Of a stretch of DNA of 64,000 nt, positions 4,942 to 57,664 are shown in pieces. Within the stretch, counting starts at the first letter, position 1, and every line of letters begins with the position of its first letter. Below the pieces are notes generated by a model. It worked only from the letters and a program-made list of their open reading frames with translations. It did not search any database and had not been told where the DNA came from. The DNA is from Candidatus Nomurabacteria bacterium (lineage in GTDB: Bacteria; Patescibacteriota; Minisyncoccia; Phycocordibacterales; UBA9973). Made by a program: the position numbers and the translations under genes. The stretch spans positions 7,208 through 71,207 of the forward strand of contig JANYAX010000036.1 of the NCBI GenBank assembly GCA_025361085.1, in the 5' to 3' direction.

Positions 4942-5961
4942 ATGAATACAAATTTAAACACTTTAGAATTTATTCTAAAAAATTATAAGAATTTCAATGC
5001 ACGTGCGACGAAAGACGCAACTATTTCGTATTGGCGTCATATTGAAAAGGGTGGAAAAATGTTTTGGGCCATGGGTGGGGCGATGTCTTCTGCTCAGCTT
5101 GGAATAACACTTGCGCCTGCAATCCGAAGTGGTTTGATTTCGGGAATGTCTGTGACAGGAGCGAACCTCGAAGAATCACTCTTCCGTCTTGTTGCTCACA
5201 AGAGTTACAAAGATTTTCCTGATTATCGATATTTTACTAAAGAAGATGACACAAAAATTCTCGAAGACCGCATGCGTCGCGTGACAGATACAAGTATCCC
5301 AGAAGATGAAGCATTTCGTGTTGTCGAGAAACAAATTGTCCCTACTTGGAAGACAGCCACAGTAGATGGCACAAGAAAGTTTTGGCATGAATATTTCTAC
5401 GAGCTTATTCAATCGATTGATAAAGAAAAGCACGAAGGAAGTGCCGATGAATGTTGGTTACTTGCAGCAGCCGAGAAAAATATTCCAATTGTAGTTCCTG
5501 GATATGAAGATTCAACTTTTGGAAATATTTTTGCTTCATATGTAAAGACTGGTGAATGCAGTGCAAATATTGCAAAATCCGGAGTTGAATACATGTGTGC
5601 TTGGTATGACCAATATCAGAAATTATCCGAAGGTCAGGGTGTCGGGTTCTTCCAAATTGGTGGTGGTATATCTGGGGATTTTCCAATCTGTGTAGTCCCT
5701 TCTATCAAATATGATCTGCAAAAAGATGTTAAACCATGGGCATATTTCTGCCAAATTTCTGATTCGACAACTTCATATGGTTCATATTCAGGGGCAACTC
5801 CAAATGAGAAAATTACTTGGGATAAACTTACAAAAGACACTCCAATGTTTGTCATCGAATCCGATGCAACTATCGTCGTTCCTCTAGTACTAAATGCACT
5901 TATGGAATGCCAAGCAAACCCAGCTGAAGCAAATAAATTAATAGAAAAGTACACAGCATAA
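4942..5961 (+). CDS. Deoxyhypusine synthase-like protein (DHS family; possible aminobutyl transferase / homospermidine-type synthase)
   Basis: 339 aa, DHS-typical length; VTGANLEES resembles the DHS VTTAGG-EED NAD-region motif; sits between a decarboxylase and an agmatinase-family gene. Confidence 0.6.
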   Translation: MNTNLNTLEFILKNYKNFNARATKDATISYWRHIEKGGKMFWAMGGAMSSAQLGITLAPAIRSGLISGMSVTGANLEESLFRLVAHKSYKDFPDYRYFTKEDDTKILEDRMRRVTDTSIPEDEAFRVVEKQIVPTWKTATVDGTRKFWHEYFYELIQSIDKEKHEGSADECWLLAAAEKNIPIVVPGYEDSTFGNIFASYVKTGECSANIAKSGVEYMCAWYDQYQKLSEGQGVGFFQIGGGISGDFPICVVPSIKYDLQKDVKPWAYFCQISDSTTSYGSYSGATPNEKITWDKLTKDTPMFVIESDATIVVPLVLNALMECQANPAEANKLIEKYTA

Positions 5962-5973
5962 ATAATTTTTGAA

Positions 5974-7026
5974 ATGGACAACAAAAAAATTATAGAAAAA
6001 AAAATATCAAATTTTAACCCAAATGAAAGTGGTGAACTTCATGAGGGAATTTTTGGTTTGCCATTTAGTGTAAATGAATCTAAATTAATTCTTGTACCGG
6101 TGCCATGGGAAGCAACAACTACTTATGGTGATGGAGCCTCATATGGTCCTAAATCAATATTAGAAGCCTCACAGCAAATAGATTTATATGATTCAATATA
6201 TCCAGATGGTTGGAAGGAGGGAATTGCGATGCAAGATATTCCGATGAATATATTTAAAAAGAGTGAAGAAATTGGCGAAAAGACAAATGAATATGTAAGA
6301 AAATATAACGAAAGACAAATTGATAAAACATTACAAAATGAAATAAATAAAGCGGGTGAAGAATTAAATAAATATGTTAAACAAGTTACTTCCGATTTTT
6401 TAAATAAAGACAAGATTGTTGGAGTTATTGGAGGGGAACATAGTGTTCCACTTGGGTATATTGAAGCTTTGTCAGAAAAATATGAAGATTTTGGTATTTT
6501 GCACATTGACGCACATTCTGATCTCAGAGAAGCATATCAAGGTCTTACTTATTCTCATGCGTCTATATTTTATAATGTTTTAAAAATTAAAAATGTCTCT
6601 AGTCTTGTTCAGTTCGGTGTTCGAGATTTTTGTGAAGATGAATTCAATCTTATTCAAAAAAATGAAAAACGTATATTTCTTTTCACTGATTATGAAATAA
6701 AGAAAAAAATATTTAGAGGAACGACAATAAAAAAAGAATTTAATGAAATAATTAAAAAACTTCCCCAAAATGTATATGTCTCTTTTGATATCGATGGCCT
6801 TATTCCTTATCTAAGTCCTAATACTGGTACGCCTGTAGTGGGTGGTTTCACTATTGAAGAAGTTGTCTTTTTGATTGAAGAAGTTGTTAATTCTGGTAGA
6901 AAAATAATAGGCTTTGATTTGTGTGAGGTTTCCCCAGGAGAAAATATCAATAATAAATGGGATGGAAACGTTGGGGCAAGAGTTTTGTATAAGCTTTGTC
7001 AGCTTACATTAAAAAGCCAGAAGTAG
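5974..7026 (+). CDS. Arginase/agmatinase-family ureohydrolase (agmatinase-like)
   Basis: 350 aa; Mn-binding motifs GGEHS, HIDAHSDL, SFDIDGL..P..GTP characteristic of the ureohydrolase family. Confidence 0.75.
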   Translation: MDNKKIIEKKISNFNPNESGELHEGIFGLPFSVNESKLILVPVPWEATTTYGDGASYGPKSILEASQQIDLYDSIYPDGWKEGIAMQDIPMNIFKKSEEIGEKTNEYVRKYNERQIDKTLQNEINKAGEELNKYVKQVTSDFLNKDKIVGVIGGEHSVPLGYIEALSEKYEDFGILHIDAHSDLREAYQGLTYSHASIFYNVLKIKNVSSLVQFGVRDFCEDEFNLIQKNEKRIFLFTDYEIKKKIFRGTTIKKEFNEIIKKLPQNVYVSFDIDGLIPYLSPNTGTPVVGGFTIEEVVFLIEEVVNSGRKIIGFDLCEVSPGENINNKWDGNVGARVLYKLCQLTLKSQK

Positions 7027-7083
7027 AAATTATAAATCAACTCACTGTATCACACAGCAAGAACCAAATTTGTAAAAAAATAT

Positions 7084-7114
7084 AAGGCGTACAAATAATG
7101 TACGCCTTTTATTT
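7084..7114. terminator. Bidirectional rho-independent terminator hairpin (AAGGCGTACA-aataa-TGTACGCCTT) between convergent genes
   Basis: 10-bp perfect stem flanked by A-run upstream and T-run downstream. Confidence 0.55.
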
Positions 7115-7512
7115 TAATAATTGTTGTCATTGAGAACCTTCATCAAACCGACAGGCACTCCAATGCATCCAAATATTCCCCACGCAACATAAATTGGGGT
7201 TATTGATTTTATCATAAAACCAAAAATTACCCCCAGAATTGTTGCACCAACGAAGAGTATTAAATATATTATTACTAATTCTTTTAATACTTTTTTCCAA
7301 ACTTTTTCTCTTTTCATTGTTTCCTCCTTTTTGTTTGCTCTCTCATCCTTTTTACGAAGATAAAGAAGACTCATGGATCTTCTTGCTTTTTGTTTTGCTG
7401 TCAGTCTCATCTTTTGATTGTTTTTAAGATTAATTGAATTGTGTTTACCTCCGACAAAAGTTGGGGACAAAAATAATTTAACTAATAAATGAAAAGAATT
7501 TTCAAGGAACAA
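7114..7512 (-). CDS. Small membrane protein (2 TM at C-terminus); true start probably an internal Met
   Basis: ORF with basic N-terminal region and hydrophobic C-terminal half; no recognisable family. Confidence 0.35.
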   Translation of the reverse strand: MFLENSFHLLVKLFLSPTFVGGKHNSINLKNNQKMRLTAKQKARRSMSLLYLRKKDERANKKEETMKREKVWKKVLKELVIIYLILFVGATILGVIFGFMIKSITPIYVAWGIFGCIGVPVGLMKVLNDNNY

Positions 7513-7647
7513 TTAATTCTGTGTGAAGTATAGCACAATACATAATACATGTCAAGTATTTTGAGTAATATGAATTGACTTTATTAAATATATCAAGTAA
7601 AATATATTTAGTTTGATAAGTTTTATTATTATTAAATTAAAATATTT

Positions 7648-8232
7648 ATGAGAATTGCAAGAAGTGAACAGATCGCGTTTTCAAGTATACTCTTTGATTC
7701 ATTGTTTGGGCTAGTACTTTTTTTTAGTATTGATTCTATTCTTGATATAAAGAATCCGACCAGTTTGTTTTTCTATTTATTTAGTATTATTATTTTGGCT
7801 CATTGGTGGCTAATGTTTAAATCATGCGATGACGCTTATAATGAAGAAGTTACCAACTCCGCACTCGATTTAATCATCGGTGTTGTTCAATTGATATTTA
7901 TTGAGTTTATAGTACTTGCATCACGCTCATCTGACTACATTTTGGCTACAAAATTTCTATTAGCGTTATTTATAATTGATTTGTTGTGGGCAGTAATTTG
8001 GCTTTATATAGGTAAATGGAGAACAGCAGATATTTCAAAAATTCATTTAATGGAAAAAGAATTAAAGTATAACATCTTAATTGATTCAATCGCTGTTGTT
8101 TTGTTCTTGCTGTTTATGTTTTTCTTTCAGTCGTTTATGCCAATATTTTTTGTTATTGGATTTGTAATAATCTATTTAATATACATAATTCTTTCTTTTA
8201 AATATAAAATTATTGATATAGATATATTCTAA
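7648..8232 (+). CDS. Polytopic membrane protein, unknown function
   Basis: 194 aa, 4-5 hydrophobic segments; sits upstream of SET-domain gene with a 10-nt gap. Confidence 0.4.
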   Translation: MRIARSEQIAFSSILFDSLFGLVLFFSIDSILDIKNPTSLFFYLFSIIILAHWWLMFKSCDDAYNEEVTNSALDLIIGVVQLIFIEFIVLASRSSDYILATKFLLALFIIDLLWAVIWLYIGKWRTADISKIHLMEKELKYNILIDSIAVVLFLLFMFFFQSFMPIFFVIGFVIIYLIYIILSFKYKIIDIDIF

Positions 8233-8241
8233 AAAGTTAAA

Positions 8242-8706
8242 ATGAATTATAAAAAAATTCTTAATCAAGTCAAAAAAAGGCCTCGTGTTCACGGTTATAT
8301 CTCTCCCAATACTGAAACAAAATTGAGCCTAATTCATGGATTAGGGTTGTTTTCAAAGAGAGTTATAAATAAGAACGAAATAGTTGCTGTGTGGGGTGGA
8401 TGTATTGCAACAAAAAACGAGATAGAAAAATTACCCAAAGATATTGGTTACGAATATGCACTTGAGATATATCCAGGGTATTATCTTGCTGAGGTGAAAG
8501 AGTCAGAATTAGATTCTTCTGACTTTGTAAATCATTCTTGCTCACCAAACTGTAAAATTGTAAATAAATTTACAATGATATCAAAACGAAAAATTAAAAA
8601 GGGGGAAGAACTAACGTCAGATTTTTCTAACCATAAAATGAACGGGCATAATTTCTTATGTAATTGTGGTGCCAAAAATTGTAAAAAAAAGACCTTTTTT
8701 AATTAA
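8242..8706 (+). CDS. Minimal SET-domain protein (putative protein-lysine methyltransferase)
   Basis: 154 aa; GLGLFS (GxG), NHSCSPNC (NHSCxPN), EELTSDF (ELxxDY-like) and post-SET CNCGAKNC (CxCx4C) all present in canonical order. Confidence 0.7.
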   Translation: MNYKKILNQVKKRPRVHGYISPNTETKLSLIHGLGLFSKRVINKNEIVAVWGGCIATKNEIEKLPKDIGYEYALEIYPGYYLAEVKESELDSSDFVNHSCSPNCKIVNKFTMISKRKIKKGEELTSDFSNHKMNGHNFLCNCGAKNCKKKTFFN

Positions 8707-8732
8707 AAGAGTAGATATGCTATAATACATAT

Positions 8733-9656
8733 ATGTCATGGTTTTTTATTGCACTGATTGGTCCATTTCTATATGCTTTAACAAATTATATAGATAAAAT
8801 TCTTTTAGAAAAATATTTTAAAGAAAGTGGTATTGGAACTATCTTGTTGTTTTCTTCGTTGATATCTATGTTTGCGCTACCTATTTTTCTGATTATAGAT
8901 AATACAGTTTTAGATGTTAATATAATAAATATTCTCATTCTCGCATTAAAAGGGACATTGGGGGTGGGAGTATTGTGGTTTTATTTAATGGCCTTAAAAA
9001 ATGAAGAGGCTTCAGTTGTTATTGTTTTTTATCAGCTTGTGCCAGTGTTTGGAGCAATATTAGGCTATTTTTTTCTTGGTGAAATACTAACAAAAATGCA
9101 AGTAATCTCTATGGCTATAATTATTTTAGGGACAATGATTATATCATTTGAAATAGATTCAGATAATCATTTTAGATTAAGAAAGAAAAACACTATTATC
9201 CCAATGATCGGAGCCTCTTTATTTTGGGCGACAGGAGGAGTTATTTTCAAATCTGTTGCGCTTAAAGAAAACTTATGGCGGTCATTATTTTGGGAACATG
9301 TAATGTTAGTGTTAGTTGGCATAATTATTTTTATTTTTGTAAGGTCATATCGCAATAGTTTTATTTTAGCGCTAAAAAATAATTCTAAAAATATTTTATC
9401 ACTCAATATTATAAATGAATTTATATATATATCTGGAAATGTTGCTGTAGCTTATGCGTATTTACTTGCTCCAATTGGACTTGTATTACTCACAGAATCT
9501 TTTCAACCGATCTTTGTTTTAATTATTGGAGTGATTTTAACTGCTTTATTCCCTAAAATTATAACCGAAAAAATGCAAGCAAAACATCTTTGGCAGAAAG
9601 TTATTGCTATTAGTATAACGGCACTAGGTACATATCTTTTGCTTTTTTATAAATAA
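8733..9656 (+). CDS. EamA/DMT-superfamily transporter (10 TM)
   Basis: 307 aa, two repeated 5-TM halves; typical drug/metabolite transporter topology. Confidence 0.65.
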   Translation: MSWFFIALIGPFLYALTNYIDKILLEKYFKESGIGTILLFSSLISMFALPIFLIIDNTVLDVNIINILILALKGTLGVGVLWFYLMALKNEEASVVIVFYQLVPVFGAILGYFFLGEILTKMQVISMAIIILGTMIISFEIDSDNHFRLRKKNTIIPMIGASLFWATGGVIFKSVALKENLWRSLFWEHVMLVLVGIIIFIFVRSYRNSFILALKNNSKNILSLNIINEFIYISGNVAVAYAYLLAPIGLVLLTESFQPIFVLIIGVILTALFPKIITEKMQAKHLWQKVIAISITALGTYLLLFYK

Positions 9657-9667
9657 TTTTATTTATT

Positions 9668-10579
9668 ATGATTCCAGAATTTCCAAACTTTAAGAAGTTA
9701 GAATTATCTGATAAAGAAGAAATTGAAAAATTTGTATCTAATTTTCCACCTTATTCCGCTTTTAATTTTATTAATTTATTGATCTGGGATATAAAAAATA
9801 CACGTAAAATATCAAAATTAAATGATAACCTGGTAATATTTTTTACTGATTATGAGACAGATGAACCGTTTTTGTCTTTTTTGGGAAATAATAAATGCAA
9901 AGATACTATTTTAAAACTTGTTAGTTTTGCTCAAAAGGAAAAGATATCTACTAAACTTAGATTTATTACAGAAGAAATTATTTCTCAAATAAAATCTGAC
10001 AATTTAAATATTGAGGAAGATCGTGATAATTTTGATTATTTATTTTCTCCGTTTGAATTATCAAATTATACGGGAATTAAATTCAAAAAACATAGACATC
10101 TTGCCAAAAGATTTTTACAGGATTATCCAAATGCTATTTTTAAAATAGAAAATTTAAATAATGAAAAAAATAAAAATGATATTCATTCTGTATTGCGTAA
10201 ATGGGAGAATGGTAAAAAATTAGAAAATAAATTTTGTAATTTAAGTTACGAGGAGAAAGCTATTGATAACCTATTAAAAAATATTAGTGACAAAAAATTG
10301 ATTTTATCATATGTGCTTATAGATAACAAAATGATAGGATTCAGTATTGATGAAATATTACCAAATGAGGTCGTAATATCACACTTTGTTAAAGCCGATA
10401 ACTCTTTTAGGGGAATATATGAATTTTTAAATAAAAAATTAGCCAGTTATTTATTTACTTTAGGCATTAAAACATGGAATTGGCAACAAGATTTAAATAT
10501 TAAAAATTTAAGAGAGACAAAATTGGGATATAGACCTGTTTCTTTTTTAAAGAGATTTAGCGTGTCGTACAAGATTTAA
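9668..10579 (+). CDS. Hypothetical protein, possibly DUF2156-like (MprF C-terminal, GNAT-fold aminoacyl-transferase-like) domain
   Basis: 303 aa; N-terminal PPYSAFNFINLLIWD resembles the DUF2156 signature as recalled; assignment weak. Confidence 0.35.
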   Translation: MIPEFPNFKKLELSDKEEIEKFVSNFPPYSAFNFINLLIWDIKNTRKISKLNDNLVIFFTDYETDEPFLSFLGNNKCKDTILKLVSFAQKEKISTKLRFITEEIISQIKSDNLNIEEDRDNFDYLFSPFELSNYTGIKFKKHRHLAKRFLQDYPNAIFKIENLNNEKNKNDIHSVLRKWENGKKLENKFCNLSYEEKAIDNLLKNISDKKLILSYVLIDNKMIGFSIDEILPNEVVISHFVKADNSFRGIYEFLNKKLASYLFTLGIKTWNWQQDLNIKNLRETKLGYRPVSFLKRFSVSYKI

Positions 10580-10602
10580 GGAATATTGAAAAACAATATT
10601 TT

Positions 10603-10998
10603 ATGATGTATAATAGAAAGTACAATTATATGAAAACCAAACAACATTTTTATAATCATATATTTTTTTACATAATATCTTTTTTCCTTTTAGTGACAAT
10701 ATTTAATTCTTTCTATCGTTTTATTATTAAAAATGATTATATCGTTTATTATGAAGATAAATGTGATCCTTACACGGAGTCATGTTTTATGTCTTGTGAA
10801 GCAGACAGTTGTATTTATTATAAAAAGATACAAAAATATGCTTTAAATGTTTATACTGAATGTGGTAATAATATCACAAATTGTTACCAAGCAAGTGTTT
10901 GTTTAAAAAATGATAAAAATTGTTCTATAACATATTGCAATTTAAATATAGATTCTAATTGTGAATTTATTAATAATAGTCGTATCCAAAATAATTAA
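10603..10998 (+). CDS. Signal-anchored Cys-rich (12 Cys) secreted/surface protein
   Basis: N-terminal TM followed by Cys-rich domain; no family recognised. Confidence 0.35.
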   Translation: MMYNRKYNYMKTKQHFYNHIFFYIISFFLLVTIFNSFYRFIIKNDYIVYYEDKCDPYTESCFMSCEADSCIYYKKIQKYALNVYTECGNNITNCYQASVCLKNDKNCSITYCNLNIDSNCEFINNSRIQNN

Positions 10999-11022
10999 TT
11001 ACTAGCATAAAGAATAAATAAC

Positions 11023-12711
11023 ATGATTTGCTATTCATTTACAGAGCCACTTTATTTAATTTTTTCACCAGATCTTCCAGCATTATTTTATTATTCGCAT
11101 ATAGTTACAGCTATAGTTGCTATTTTTGTTGGTTTTTTTGTTTTAAAAAGTGGTAAAAAACTTTTACTAAATCGATTATTATTCGCCATTTCAATCTGTT
11201 TTTTCTTTTGGGTGGTTTCAAATATTATCTTGTGGACAAATATTCATAGTAATATTATGTTGTTTGTTTGGTCACTTCTTAGAATACTCTCTTCCATGAT
11301 GTCTATTTTGAGTATTTATTTTTTGTATGTTTTTTTAGAAAAAAAAGATATTTCCTTTTTTTTAAAAGGAATTTTTCTCGTTCTTATATTACCAGTTATA
11401 ATACTTGCTCCGACATATATTAATTTGAGCGGATTTAATCTTGCAACTTGTGATGCTTTTATGTTTGAAGGGGGTCTATTCCAATTCTATCGCGTTGCTT
11501 TTGGGATATTAGCGATGTTATGGATTTTAATTTTATTAATAAGAAGATATCACAAAGCAGATGTTAATTTTAAGAAACAAATATTACTTGTGGGTGTGGG
11601 CATTGAATTATTTTTGTTATCTTTTTTTATTGTGACATTTTTAGCAGCTTATTTTACTAAAATCGGATTACTTCCTGATTCTAGATTAGAATATTATGGG
11701 TTATTCGGAATAATTATTTTTGTAATATATTTGAGTATTCTTACTGTTAAATTTGGAGCTTTTAATATTAAATTATTGGCAAGTCAAGCATTAGTTTGGG
11801 GACTTGTGATATTAATTGGGGCACAATTCTTTTTTATAAAAATCACAGCTAATTTTGTCTTGAATGGAATAGCTTTTATTGGGATATTGATTGCTGGTCC
11901 ATTTCTTATAAAATCTGTAAAAAAAGAGGTTAATCAGCGAGAATTATTGGAATCATTGACGTTGAAACTCGAACAGTCAAATTCAAATTTTGCTGAAGCT
12001 AATGAAAAATTGAAAGGGTTGGATAAATTGAAAACAGAATTCGTTTCGCTCGCTTCTCATCAGTTGCGCAGTCCACTTACTGCTATTAAGGGTTACATTT
12101 CTATGTTGATCGAGGGAGATTATGGAGAAATTAATCCTAAAGCAAAAGAAATCGTTGATAGGGTTGCAGAATCAAGTAACAATCTAACACTCGTTGTTGA
12201 AGACCTGCTTAATGTTTCCAAAATTGAATCTGGTGGAATGAAATATGACATGGTTAAATTTGATTTTAGCGAACTTGTAAATAATACGGCAAAAGATTTG
12301 TCTATTACCGCTGAAAAGAAAGGGCTAAAACTTACTCATAAAATCGATATGAGCCATCAATACTTTGTGGATGGTGATAAAGAGAAACTAAGACAAGTTT
12401 TGATCAATTTGATTGACAATTCGATGAAGTATACTGAAAAAGGTAAGATCGAATTAGATTTGGATAATCAAGATGGCAAAATCACTTTGTCTGTCAAAGA
12501 TACAGGGGCAGGGGTTGACCCTGAGGTCGAAGATACAATTTTTGAGAAATTCTCAAGAGGTGAAGGTGCGAAGTTGAACGCTTCTGGGTCTGGACTTGGG
12601 CTTTACTTAGTTAAAGAAATAGTTGAAGCTCACCACGGGCGAGTCTGGGTGGAATCTCTTGGTGTGGGTAAGGGCTCAACATTCTTTGTGGAATTGAACG
12701 AAGTAAAATAA
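11023..12711 (+). CDS. Sensor histidine kinase with multi-TM N-terminal sensor domain
   Basis: 562 aa; 7-8 TM N-terminus, coiled coil, H-box SHQLRSPLTAIKGY, N/G1/G2 boxes (DNSMKY, DTGAGV, GSGLGL). Confidence 0.85.
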   Translation: MICYSFTEPLYLIFSPDLPALFYYSHIVTAIVAIFVGFFVLKSGKKLLLNRLLFAISICFFFWVVSNIILWTNIHSNIMLFVWSLLRILSSMMSILSIYFLYVFLEKKDISFFLKGIFLVLILPVIILAPTYINLSGFNLATCDAFMFEGGLFQFYRVAFGILAMLWILILLIRRYHKADVNFKKQILLVGVGIELFLLSFFIVTFLAAYFTKIGLLPDSRLEYYGLFGIIIFVIYLSILTVKFGAFNIKLLASQALVWGLVILIGAQFFFIKITANFVLNGIAFIGILIAGPFLIKSVKKEVNQRELLESLTLKLEQSNSNFAEANEKLKGLDKLKTEFVSLASHQLRSPLTAIKGYISMLIEGDYGEINPKAKEIVDRVAESSNNLTLVVEDLLNVSKIESGGMKYDMVKFDFSELVNNTAKDLSITAEKKGLKLTHKIDMSHQYFVDGDKEKLRQVLINLIDNSMKYTEKGKIELDLDNQDGKITLSVKDTGAGVDPEVEDTIFEKFSRGEGAKLNASGSGLGLYLVKEIVEAHHGRVWVESLGVGKGSTFFVELNEVK

Positions 12712-12720
12712 TTGTAAATA

Positions 12721-12758
12721 AAAAAGCTGAGCTAGGTCTTGCCTAGCTCAGCTTTTTA
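12721..12758. terminator. Bidirectional terminator hairpin AGCTGAGCTAGG-tcttg-CCTAGCTCAGCT flanked by A5/T5
   Basis: 12-bp perfect stem between convergent HK (+) and cysS (-). Confidence 0.65.
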
Positions 12759-56810: not shown

Positions 56811-57302
56811 ATGAAAAAAATATATATAGCAGTCAGCACTTTGTTCATCACAGGAATGATCATCGCATTCTCGGTCCCATCAGTTACTAAAGTTGAAATA
56901 CCATACGACGATAGAGCAGATAGGATTGATTCTTATTTCAAGAGTAAGGGAATGCCACTCGCAGGATACGGTCATGAATTTGTAGAACAAGCGGACAAGA
57001 ACGGAATTGATTGGAGACTATTACCGGCAATATCAATCAAGGAGCAATCCGGTGGTCTACGCAAACCATATAACTGTCCTAACAAGACAATTAATTATAA
57101 CTGGTTTGGATGGGCAAGTGCACGAATATGTTTTCATTCGATAGATGAGGCAATTAAAACAGTCTCGGAAAATCTCGGGGGAAACAATCCAAGAACGCAA
57201 TCATATTATAAAGGTGACACAAGAGAGAAATTGCATTCATACAATGGGACAGTAGATCCAAAGTATCCAAGTGCAGTGATTGAAATTATGGAGAAGTTTT
57301 GA
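56811..57302 (+). CDS. Signal-anchored GH73-like N-acetylglucosaminidase
   Basis: Start trimmed to MKKIYIA; AISIKEQSGG and NYNWFGW resemble the GH73 ESGWG and NYNLFG motifs. Confidence 0.45.
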   Translation: MKKIYIAVSTLFITGMIIAFSVPSVTKVEIPYDDRADRIDSYFKSKGMPLAGYGHEFVEQADKNGIDWRLLPAISIKEQSGGLRKPYNCPNKTINYNWFGWASARICFHSIDEAIKTVSENLGGNNPRTQSYYKGDTREKLHSYNGTVDPKYPSAVIEIMEKF

Positions 57303-57336
57303 AAGCAGGTCCGCGGAAATTACGCGGACCAATATC

Positions 57337-57405
57337 GCGGGTTAGTGTAATGGTCGCACGTTTGGCTCATGCCCAAACGGACTCGGTTCGATTCCGAGGC
57401 CCGCA
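57337..57405 (+). tRNA. tRNA-like element, anticodon CAU (Met/Ile2-type), non-canonical acceptor/D junction; preceded by hairpin GGTCCGCG-gaaatta-CGCGGACC (57308..57330)
   Basis: D-stem GTGT/GCAC, anticodon stem TTTGG/CCAAA with loop CUCAUGC, T-arm CTCGG-TTCGATT-CCGAG, acceptor GCGGG/CCCGC; only one nucleotide between acceptor and D stem. Confidence 0.35.
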
Positions 57406-57439
57406 ACAAGTAATGTTCTTTAAAAGAAAGGAGACCAAT

Positions 57440-57664
57440 ATGGCAAGGAATGATCCGGAACAAGTCACACGCCATCACATCATCCCATCATCTAGGATAC
57501 AAGGAAAACCTATAACTGGGATCTGCAAAGTTAAGCGATGGCTGCATGAACTGTATCACAATCTTTTTGGTAATATGACACCGTACGAAATAGGCCAGTG
57601 GCTCAATGAGACATTTTGGAACTGTGAGTATGAGATCACTATTAGAAGAAAGAGAAATTTTTAA
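57440..57664 (+). CDS. Small His-rich protein (possible His-Me finger/HNH-like)
   Basis: 74 aa; strong RBS AAAGGAG 7 nt upstream; RHHIIP..WLHELYH pattern; track ORF 57299.. trimmed because its 5' part is the tRNA-like element. Confidence 0.35.
   Translation: MARNDPEQVTRHHIIPSSRIQGKPITGICKVKRWLHELYHNLFGNMTPYEIGQWLNETFWNCEYEITIRRKRNF

Follow-up and report, generated by a model that had tools for sequence, protein, structure and literature searches.

The window analysed here, a stretch of 64,000 nucleotides from a Candidatus Nomurabacteria bacterium (Patescibacteriota), carries a run of six genes on the + strand between positions 7648 and 12711. They encode a membrane protein with a predicted six-helix, TMEM175-like fold (M194, 194 aa; 7648..8232), a predicted SET + post-SET methyltransferase of 154 aa (8242..8706), an EamA/DMT-superfamily transporter of 307 aa (8733..9656), a DUF2156/LPG_synthase_C protein of 303 aa (9668..10579), a cysteine-rich membrane-anchored protein of 131 aa (C131; 10603..10998) and a sensor histidine kinase (HK; 11023..12711). 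The initial annotation had described the SET, EamA and DUF2156 genes as tightly linked, and these three ORFs were found where it placed them, on the + strand and with short gaps (26 nt between SET and EamA, 11 nt between EamA and DUF2156). The membrane protein it reported ahead of SET is M194, whose stop codon lies 9 nt upstream of the SET start. TM-like segments are present in EamA, C131, HK and M194; none was found in SET or DUF2156.

The gene run is bordered upstream by a terminator-like hairpin (7084..7108, both strands; 10-pair stem including 5 GC pairs, with a T-run on either strand), which is preceded by an agmatinase gene on the + strand and a 132-aa ORF on the − strand. Its downstream border is a 17-pair terminator-like hairpin (12721..12757) situated between HK and the convergent CysRS gene. 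No terminator-like hairpin was identified between the SET, EamA and DUF2156 genes. A promoter-like site on the + strand (TTGACT-17 nt-TAAAAT; 7575..7603), which agrees with the consensus at 10 of 12 positions, is found 44 nt before the M194 gene; it is to be read as a consensus match only, the region having 42 promoter-like sites versus 37.8 expected from shuffled sequence, which is no excess. No riboswitch or other known RNA element was detected in the region, the Rfam matches being two tRNAs elsewhere in the window. The GC3 values of SET (0.25) and M194 (0.27) are typical of the window and those of EamA, DUF2156 and C131 are lower (0.16–0.21). A recent foreign acquisition of SET, judged by composition, was considered and set aside: a GC3 that is ordinary for the window is uninformative for this gene.

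Profile searches gave significant matches for each of the three families named in the initial annotation. The 154-aa protein matches the Pfam SET family (PF00856; E 9.5e-15, 55.3 bits versus a gathering threshold of 22.4) with residues 33–128 aligned to positions 1–104 of the 105-position model. The transporter matches EamA (PF00892; E 9.9e-17, 61.9 bits versus 28.2) over residues 2–138, that is, with one of the two usual repeats above threshold, and TM-like segments are distributed along all of its 307 amino acids. The 303-aa protein matches LPG_synthase_C (PF09924; E 2.8e-22, 79.6 bits versus 27.5) across its full length (model positions 10–296 of 298), in agreement with its proposed membership of the MprF C-terminal family. 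A look-up of database names for these three proteins yielded none. HK has HisKA (3.9e-15) and HATPase_c (1.5e-27) domains.

The 154-aa protein had been credited with every SET hallmark. This holds for G33-L-G35, N97-H-S-C100-S-P-N-C and the post-SET C140-N-C142-G-A-K-N-C147 but not for motif IV, E123-L-T-S-D-F128, in which F128 occupies the position of a tyrosine in MLL1 (ELTYDY). F128 is invariant in 22 of 22 clade members, as are G33, G35, Y72, N97-H-S-C100, E123-L-T, C140, C142 and C147. Motif I (GxG) and motif III (NH-x-C), which are the cofactor-binding motifs, are both present and align with their MLL1 counterparts. The conserved tyrosine pair of the lysine channel is incomplete, its motif II member (Y72) being retained throughout the clade and its motif IV member being absent. 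The Phe/Tyr switch position is S126 and is filled by Ser, Ala, Thr or Cys in the aligned clade members. The post-SET zinc-site motif CxCx4C (C140, C142, C147), together with C100 of NHSC, aligns at the sequence level with the MLL1 post-SET. An AlphaFold2 model of the protein (pLDDT 88.6) yielded 349 Foldseek matches in the PDB at E≤0.001; the top-ranked ones listed are all SET methyltransferases (MLL1, MLL4, ASH1L, NSD1; probability 1.0), with a TM score of ~0.67 to the SET domains of MLL1, MLL4 and ASH1L. The best solved relative by sequence is the MLL1 SET + post-SET (E 3.6e-14), the value for BurB being 3.5e-5. A BurB-like identity was rejected, as both the window SET and one SET embedded in the module described below are nearer to MLL-type enzymes than to BurB. 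The predicted assignment of the 154-aa protein is a soluble, MLL-like SET + post-SET protein of a Patescibacteria-specific clade that is without the C-terminal extension seen in the common ~170-aa bacterial SETs.

The view that SET proteins are rare in bacteria did not hold, with 107 clusters found at E≤1e-3 and relatives encoded in 194 metagenome stretches; this concurs with the report that SET genes are not especially rare among prokaryotes (PMC3980110). A viral (vSET) ancestry, one of the origins put forward for the gene, found no support: neither the IMG/VR contigs nor 50,697 phage records contained a relative and, contrary to the vSET type (a SET core without post-SET), the window protein has the post-SET cysteine motif. 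Regarding catalysis, yeast Set1 carrying the Y1054F substitution, at a position that aligns with F128, retains 45% of monomethylation, 28% of dimethylation and 3% of trimethylation (PMC3585878). BurB Y124F retains more than 60% activity (PMC12542666), Y124 being a residue that may correspond to F128. Since Set1 Y1054F keeps partial activity with little trimethylation, activity of the window SET is plausible but probably altered, and the Phe in place of the motif IV Tyr suggests that few methyl groups would be added (mono-/dimethylation).

Genes of the same SET clade were located in 18 distinct contexts (48–72% identity; DNA of 35–55% GC). EamA or DUF2156 adjoins SET in one of them, which is the window itself. 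The initial annotation regarded the three genes as apparently functionally coupled and named lack of co-conservation as one result that would refute this; for the SET of the window that result was obtained, the 17 other contexts being devoid of the module. The only recurrent neighbour of the window's SET clade is M194, in the closest relatives only. The ~170-aa SET family nearest to the main type embedded in the module behaves similarly, none of its 67 other metagenome loci having the module. Three loci that share the backbone of the window are informative. One (L035) carries DS, agmatinase, DUF2156, EamA, C131 and HK followed by CysRS on the opposite strand, that is, the module without SET. 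A second (L008) has M194, SET, other genes and HK, without EamA or DUF2156, and a third (L175) has M194 alone, with neither SET nor module. This distribution speaks for a SET that is autonomous of the module. Its association with EamA and DUF2156 does not represent one conserved cluster, given its occurrence in a single own-clade context and the presence of SET genes, all of other subfamilies, in 9 of 79 module loci.

The conserved unit at this locus is a module of DUF2156, EamA, C131 and HK, which is common to many CPR species. It was surveyed in 79 DUF2156-anchored loci, which are contig fragments. The most conserved partner of DUF2156 is an adjacent HK (69 loci). EamA adjoins DUF2156 on the same strand, in either order, in 35 loci and C131 accompanies DUF2156 in 32. 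All four genes, in two gene orders, are found in 30 loci, and the window also has all four. The literature searched yielded no published description of this module. The DUF2156 family comprises 397 homologues, the named ones mostly from CPR, with a length of ~300–330 aa throughout. Among solved structures, the single chain matched by its profile at E≤0.01 is PDB 2HQY (1.4e-34 over 296 residues). A basic segment in the middle of the protein ('GxKFxxKRHLAxRF'; G136, K140, R143) is conserved and aligns by sequence to 2HQY. C131 has a TM-like segment at residues ~16–42, forming an N-terminal anchor, and 10 cysteines; it has no Pfam match. Its gene is usually directly upstream of HK or overlaps the HK start (4-nt overlap in L018, L034 and L045). 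The N-terminal region of HK, of ~300 aa, is multi-TM, with TM-like segments extending to residue ~299, and no Pfam match was obtained for its first 319 aa. No response regulator partner for HK is encoded in the window; a receiver-only regulator directly follows HK in two of the 79 loci. A linkage of the module to aminoacyl-tRNA synthetases (a TrpRS-type gene in 14 loci; CysRS beside the window module) was examined and treated as backbone synteny. The window's own TrpRS-type gene is 5 kb away.

The module may have its own promoter upstream of EamA. A possible extended −10 box, TGCTATAAT, is found on the + strand at 8718..8726 and ends 6 nt before the EamA ATG, a layout as expected for a leaderless transcript. 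In locus L017, which has agmatinase upstream, TGTTATAAT occurs at the same −15 offset and in locus L016 TATAAT is found at −13. A general enrichment of TGNTATAAT was discarded as promoter evidence: the motif occurs 8 times in the window versus 4.7 ± 2.1 expected, which is not above chance, so that support for TGCTATAAT comes from its position and from the conservation in L017 and L016.

M194, the first gene of the run, belongs to an orphan CPR family with a predicted six-helix, TMEM175-like (potassium-channel) fold. Nineteen of its members matched no Pfam family at E≤5, scattered noise aside. An exhaustive profile search gathered 35 representatives; the matches listed are all ≤247 aa long and offer no sequence bridge to another family. 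In particular, a sequence link to DUF1211 was sought by Pfam and profile searches and none was found. M194 occurs without SET in loci L172–L179. An obligatory pairing of M194 with SET was also dismissed, M194 being present without SET in three other contexts.

SET ORFs of subfamilies other than that of the window are nevertheless found in 9 of the 79 loci, either within the module or next to it (7 distinct sequences, at least three subfamilies). In the 858 kb of DUF2156-anchored loci scanned, all nine lie within the module ± 700 bp, which represents 44% of the bases, and none was found in the flanks that make up the remaining 56%. The p value of the enrichment ranges from ~6e-4 to 0.016 according to what is counted as independent, the value for five arrangements being ~0.016. 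The embedded SET genes are on the module strand with gaps of 4–206 nt. At least four locations were seen: the EamA–C131 interval, immediately ahead of HK, behind HK and ahead of DUF2156. SET is the commonest and sole recurrent guest gene in the canonical module, the other guests being singletons. This presence of SETs of other subfamilies in or beside the module, and never in its flanks, would be compatible with a facultative SET-module link.

The explanation we favour, to which we assign about an even chance, is that an autonomous SET lysine methyltransferase lies beside an independent, uncharacterised module. The segment 7648–12711 would then be a mosaic of three independent units (M194, SET and the four-gene module) assembled in a slot between a polyamine operon (DS + agmatinase) and cysS; that this slot is variable is indicated by the loci with the same backbone that hold the module only, M194-SET-others-HK or M194 only. 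SET would be a cytoplasmic, SAM-dependent enzyme that most likely methylates lysine of the cell's own protein(s), a target proposed by analogy with cpnSET, which acts on Hc1, and Go1-SET, which acts on MC1-alpha. Judging from distant relatives, DUF2156 most likely catalyses a tRNA-dependent aminoacylation, with a membrane lipid or some other component of the envelope as acceptor, and the DMT protein would move the substrate or the product across the membrane. The module would thereby resemble a split MprF (synthase + flippase), genetically tied to a sensor kinase and a cysteine-rich partner. As there is no terminator between them, read-through may place SET and the module on one transcript, without SET depending on the module. 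Against independence, the embedded SETs argue for some functional link, the gap between SET and EamA has no terminator and the internal promoter is statistically insecure by itself.

The same facts feed a competing reading, possible though doubtful, in which SET serves the module as a facultative accessory, being co-expressed with it and methylating one of its proteins (e.g., HK or DUF2156) or otherwise tuning its output, and the window is another independent recruitment of this kind. The confinement of nine SET ORFs from at least three subfamilies to the module ± 700 bp, in at least four positions, the status of SET as the only recurrent guest of the canonical module and the terminator-free 26 nt separating the window SET from EamA all speak for it. 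They are to be weighed against the 70 of 79 module loci that have no SET, the 17 of 18 own-clade contexts that have no module, the wide occurrence without the module of the broader family of the main embedded SET type, the possible separate promoter of the module and the enrichment, which is modest when shared ancestry is taken into account (p ~0.016, five arrangements). A more elaborate version, which we consider improbable, makes SETs recurrent optional parts of an as yet undescribed CPR envelope-remodelling system (freestanding DUF2156, DMT translocator, cysteine-rich co-sensor, HK) that act on the product of the system, for example by N-methylating the free amine of a lysyl-type lipid to fix its positive charge. 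If true, the natural substrate of a SET enzyme would here be a lipid or another non-protein amine.

More generally, SET could act on a non-protein amine or small molecule, candidates being the free amino group of a lipid aminoacylated by DUF2156 and a polyamine produced through the adjacent DS and agmatinase genes, the aminobutyl group of which resembles the lysine side chain. BurB sets a precedent as a bacterial SET that methylates free methionine (PMC12542666), and the small residue at the switch position (S126) and the replacement of the motif IV Tyr by Phe point in the same direction. Polyamine genes are near SET in the window, in L008, in L010 and in an ERZ1426829 contig, and in L164 a DS-like ORF directly follows a distant SET. 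This neighbourhood is, however, backbone synteny that is also seen without SET in L035 and L175, neither polyamine genes nor DUF2156 accompany SET in the majority of own-clade contexts, and the window SET is matched far better by protein-lysine methyltransferases (MLL1, 3.6e-14) than by BurB (3.5e-5). We therefore regard a small-molecule substrate as very improbable. The lowest weight is given to SET being an effector delivered into the host cell of a probable episymbiont and methylating host proteins as do NUE, RomA/LegAS4 and BaSET, which appears highly improbable. Many CPR bacteria are believed to live attached to host cells, and the clade is patchy across DNA of 35–55% GC, as would suit an effector; the hosts of CPR are, however, generally thought to be prokaryotic and to have no histone tails. 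Hydrophobic segments of TM or signal type are absent from the SET protein, which also has no additional domains of the targeting or ankyrin type; no secretion genes adjoin its gene, and its contexts do not suggest a secretion locus. The characterised SET proteins of bacterial pathogens that inspire this reading act on host histones (PMC3980110).

The relation of the window proteins to known systems can be summarized as follows. The eukaryotic KMT2/MLL (SET1-family) catalytic core is the best match in sequence and fold and shares GxG, NHSCxPN, the motif II Tyr (Y72), ELT-x-D and the post-SET CxCx4C with a fourth Cys from NHSC. The window SET differs from it by being a stand-alone protein of 154 aa, with ~29% identity, F128, S126 and no partner-binding or chromatin-reader domains, in a bacterium without histones. 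Go1-SET of Methanosarcina (MC1-alpha) and cpnSET of Chlamydia (Hc1/Hc2), likened to the window SET by description only, are also small single-domain prokaryotic SETs; the window clade has the Tyr-to-Phe change. Both act on abundant basic cellular (nucleoid) proteins (PMC3980110). BurB, the methionine S-methyltransferase of Burkholderia thailandensis, is likewise a bacterial SET (~180 aa) that is active as a Y124F variant, but it matches weakly and only in the C-terminal region (E 3.5e-5), and its genomic context is unrelated.

In MprF, the two GNAT halves are separated by a positively charged helix that binds aminoacyl-tRNA, and DUF2156 domains aminoacylate lipids using aminoacyl-tRNA (PMC7334510). 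The 303-aa protein shares with MprF the full-length PF09924 domain; its conserved basic segment between the halves is a candidate counterpart of the MprF helix, and its multi-TM partner could translocate. It is, in contrast, freestanding and soluble, with no fused multi-TM flippase domain; its partner is a DMT/EamA protein rather than the MprF flippase, and the module adds a cysteine-rich protein and HK. The closest solved relative, 2HQY (a 'conserved hypothetical protein'), is also freestanding. ErdS, the fungal DUF2156 sterol aminoacyl transferase, differs by its fusion to an aminoacyl-tRNA synthetase, its isolated DUF2156 domain being poorly active (PMC7334510). Neither 2HQY nor ErdS is described with a module of EamA, cysteine-rich protein and kinase.

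The interesting unit at this locus is the four-gene module and not the SET gene, and the case teaches that close spacing in compact genomes alone does not indicate a functional operon. The SET clade, being compact and naturally carrying Phe at the motif IV position, could help to study how the number of methyl groups is controlled, and the repeated arrival of different SET genes in the module provides a lead towards a new SET substrate. The general view of CPR bacteria (Patescibacteria) is that their genomes are tiny, that many genes for lipid synthesis are missing and that they live on other cells. The module bears on the modification of their envelope, a largely obscure area. Should lipid aminoacylation be its role, these bacteria, which are thought to obtain their lipids by scavenging, would possess a split counterpart of MprF that is linked to a sensor.

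The three ORFs that the initial annotation proposed to be a functionally coupled operon lie on the forward strand exactly where it placed them, and Pfam searches confirmed their families: a 154-aa SET-domain methyltransferase (SET; 8242-8706; E 9.5e-15; 55 bits, cut-off 22.4), an EamA-type DMT transporter (EamA; 8733-9656; E 9.9e-17) and the 303-aa LPG_synthase_C/DUF2156 protein (9668-10579; 2.8e-22, full-length, model positions 10-296 of 298). NCBIfam added nothing specific for these ORFs. The SET-EamA gap is 26 nt and the EamA-DUF2156 gap 11 nt. The membrane protein reported upstream of SET is M194, a 194-aa TMEM175-like protein (7648-8232, +) whose stop lies 9 nt 5′ of SET. The plus-strand run is longer than initially described: it starts with M194 and continues after DUF2156 with a Cys-rich 131-aa protein (C131; 10603-10998, +) and a 562-aa histidine kinase (HK; 11023-12711, +). 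We name module the set EamA, DUF2156, C131 and HK. TM-like segments were found in EamA, C131, HK and M194 and none in SET and DUF2156. The only terminator-like hairpins around the run are at 7084-7108 and 12721-12757. It is flanked 5′ by a deoxyhypusine-synthase-like gene (DS) and an agmatinase-family gene, and 3′ by a convergent CysRS gene on the opposite strand. Public contigs carry identical proteins, the homologues are named Patescibacteria (CPR) or Parcubacteria, and the closest backbone genes are those of L035, a locus from a Candidatus Nomurabacteria MAG. Elsewhere in the window, a 121-aa ORF starting with TTG (57299-57664) overlaps a co-oriented tRNA-Met gene (57336-57407) and is probably spurious.

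The module was surveyed by scanning a DUF2156 alignment against one genome per GTDB species, which gave 79 loci, nearly all carrying CPR lineage labels, whose ORFs were searched with the window's proteins. HK adjoins DUF2156 in 69 of them: in 50 it follows on the same strand, and in 19 it lies upstream and divergent. EamA is its same-strand neighbour in 35/79, with DUF2156 first in 26 and EamA first, the window's order, in nine. C131 is present in 32 loci, frequently with a 4-nt overlap with the kinase start, and all four genes are found in 30. In a variant module a 275-aa membrane protein and a 93-aa protein take the place of EamA and C131. Its order is DUF2156, the 275-aa multi-TM protein, the 93-aa protein and a histidine kinase (L036, 6967-8094); it recurs in six more loci (L041, L046, L048, L054, L055, L064), and neither replacement protein has a Pfam match. 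The N-terminal ~300 aa of HK are multi-TM and match no Pfam family. The 64-kb window encodes no response regulator, and a receiver-only regulator lies directly 3′ of the kinase in just 2/79 loci.

Among solved structures the DUF2156 profile matched only the uncharacterised 2HQY protein. DUF2156 domains are aminoacyl-tRNA transferase modules that aminoacylate lipids (PMC7334510). Given this role and the adjoining DMT protein, the freestanding DUF2156 and its neighbour could act as a split MprF: synthase and translocator would be two distinct proteins, with genetic links to a membrane sensor kinase and to a Cys-rich partner. The module combines known families in a new architecture, and full-text searches (SET domain with Patescibacteria; DUF2156; CPR with MprF) returned no description of it.

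The SET-EamA gap contains TGCTATAAT at 8718-8726, ending 6 nt 5′ of the EamA ATG, a position suggestive of the layout of a leaderless transcript. In the related locus L017, TGTTATAAT occupies the same −15 offset, although its upstream gene is agmatinase, and L016 has TATAAT at −13. In 12/34 module loci a perfect TATAAT lies no more than 60 nt from the first module gene. The motif of the SET-EamA gap is not enriched across the whole window (8 versus 4.7 ± 2.1 in shuffles). Because no terminator follows SET, read-through into the module from a promoter-like site at 7575-7603 is possible. Rfam identified no regulatory RNA here.

By the refutation criterion that the initial annotation itself set, lack of co-conservation, the proposed coupling of the three genes does not hold for the window's SET. 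Its clade was found in 18 distinct contexts (seven from exact-protein look-ups and 11 further ones from a metagenome scan), spanning 35 to 55% GC. EamA, DUF2156 and C131 are nearby in the window only, and HK in the window and L008 only. All-against-all neighbour clustering identified M194 as the sole recurrent partner, beside SET in the closest relatives (L008/L009, L010 and, as a 196-aa protein, contig ERZ1426829). M194 is independent of SET, as it also occurs without it in the arrangements ProRS-M194-MsrB-MsrA, Pdf-M194-DUF218 and polyamine operon-M194-CysRS(−), the last with no further gene between. On ERZ1426829 the SET gene (5645-6109) is followed 27 nt downstream by an S-adenosylhomocysteine hydrolase gene (6137-7423), a single case and a sensible partner for a SAM-dependent methyltransferase. 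SET genes often form tandem pairs or triplets of different subfamilies (L010 4313-5292, L111, L141, L151, L155); in L010 a 169-aa SET is directly 5′ of the 154-aa clade member. On the low-GC contig L164 (76-1889) a distant SET, ~32% identical to the window's, lies ~100 nt 5′ of a DS-like ORF, reminiscent of the window, where SET and DS are also close.

SET genes of other subfamilies complicate this picture. A SET profile search across the DUF2156-anchored loci (858 kb) yielded nine SET ORFs, representing seven distinct sequences, and all nine lie within the module ±700 bp, or 44% of the bases (p ~6e-4 counting all nine hits, 3e-3 counting the distinct sequences, 0.016 counting five arrangement classes). 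They share the module's strand and are closely spaced: 15 nt 3′ of EamA (L034), 4-10 nt 5′ of HK (L074, L026), 27 nt 5′ of DUF2156 (L062) and 89 nt 3′ of HK (L053). SET is also the sole recurrent guest gene within the canonical module. However, 70/79 modules carry no SET, and the broad ~170-aa family to which the main embedded type belongs occurs at 67 other metagenome loci, none with the module. The embedded SETs represent at least three subfamilies, all different from the window's clade, and retain the motif-IV Tyr. We read the association as real but weak and facultative, and consider functional coupling unlikely; the evidence that the window's SET clade works independently is not overturned.

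Relatives sharing the window's backbone differ in what lies between the polyamine genes and cysS. L035 carries DS, agmatinase, DUF2156, EamA, C131, HK and CysRS(−) without M194 and SET; L017 has agmatinase, EamA, DUF2156, C131, HK and CysRS(−); L008 has M194, SET, two small ORFs, a PrmA-like methyltransferase and HK, and lacks EamA, DUF2156 and C131; L175 has M194 alone. The six-gene run is thus mosaic, made up of M194, SET and the four module genes. In L008, the nearest syntenic relative, the two small ORFs and the PrmA-like gene (8238-9077) lie between SET and HK, where the window has EamA, DUF2156 and C131; the PrmA-like product is a class-I methyltransferase of the ribosomal protein L11 methyltransferase family. 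EamA and DUF2156 of the window are more similar to Moraniibacteria-labelled homologues (62-64% identity, EamA-first order) than to those of L035. That relative provides the best match to DS and CysRS and a near-best match to HK, but its DUF2156 is ~46% identical and its gene order the opposite. This hints that the pair was replaced by a copy from another lineage. GC is 25-30% at 6000-12000 versus 35-39% elsewhere; GC3 is lowest in EamA (0.21), DUF2156 (0.18), C131 (0.16) and agmatinase (0.19), and higher in SET (0.25).

In many CPR genomes, polyamine genes immediately precede either the DUF2156 module or the slot for M194 and SET (window 4942-7026; L049 5514-5993; L027 5575-5961; L008 356-4743; L175 2450-6822), and within 2.5 kb upstream in 17/79 module loci. 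The window has DS-like and agmatinase genes; other loci have pyruvoyl arginine decarboxylase, AdoMet decarboxylase, or an arginine decarboxylase accompanied by DS, CN_hydrolase and agmatine deiminase. This proximity may be mere conserved backbone synteny (dnaK, dnaJ, polyamine genes, module, aaRS); a functional tie is conceivable.

The best solved relative of SET is the MLL1/KMT2A SET plus post-SET region (E 3.6e-14, residues 29-149). The AlphaFold2 model, for which 22 clade members (149-156 aa, 48-72% identity) were used, is confident (pLDDT 88.6) and matches the MLL1, MLL4, ASH1L and NSD SET domains in Foldseek (probability 1.0, TM ~0.67). G33, G35, Y72, N97-H-S-C100, E123-L-T125, F128, C140, C142 and C147 are invariant in the clade; motifs I-III and the four-Cys post-SET site are therefore intact. 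The initial claim of a complete set of SET hallmarks fails at motif IV, where the Tyr of MLL1 (ELTYDY) is replaced by Phe (F128) in every member. At the position aligned with the Phe/Tyr switch the window's protein has Ser, and the aligned clade members have Ser, Ala, Thr or Cys. The aligned yeast Set1 mutant Y1054F retains 45%, 28% and 3% of wild-type mono-, di- and trimethylation, and Y1054A is null (PMC3585878); the bacterial SET enzyme BurB keeps >60% activity as Y124F (PMC12542666), a change at a residue possibly equivalent to F128. On this basis the window's SET is expected to be an active enzyme adding few methyl groups. The nearest sequences beyond the clade are ~170-aa SET proteins of diverse bacteria (≤41% identity) with a C-terminal extension that the clade lacks; no viral relatives were found in IMG/VR or phage records. 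SET represents a new clade within a known family, in which Tyr is naturally replaced by Phe, an unusual substitution. It has no hydrophobic segment, and we infer that it would be a cytoplasmic lysine methyltransferase for the cell's own proteins, analogous to cpnSET acting on Hc1 and Go1-SET on MC1-alpha (PMC3980110).
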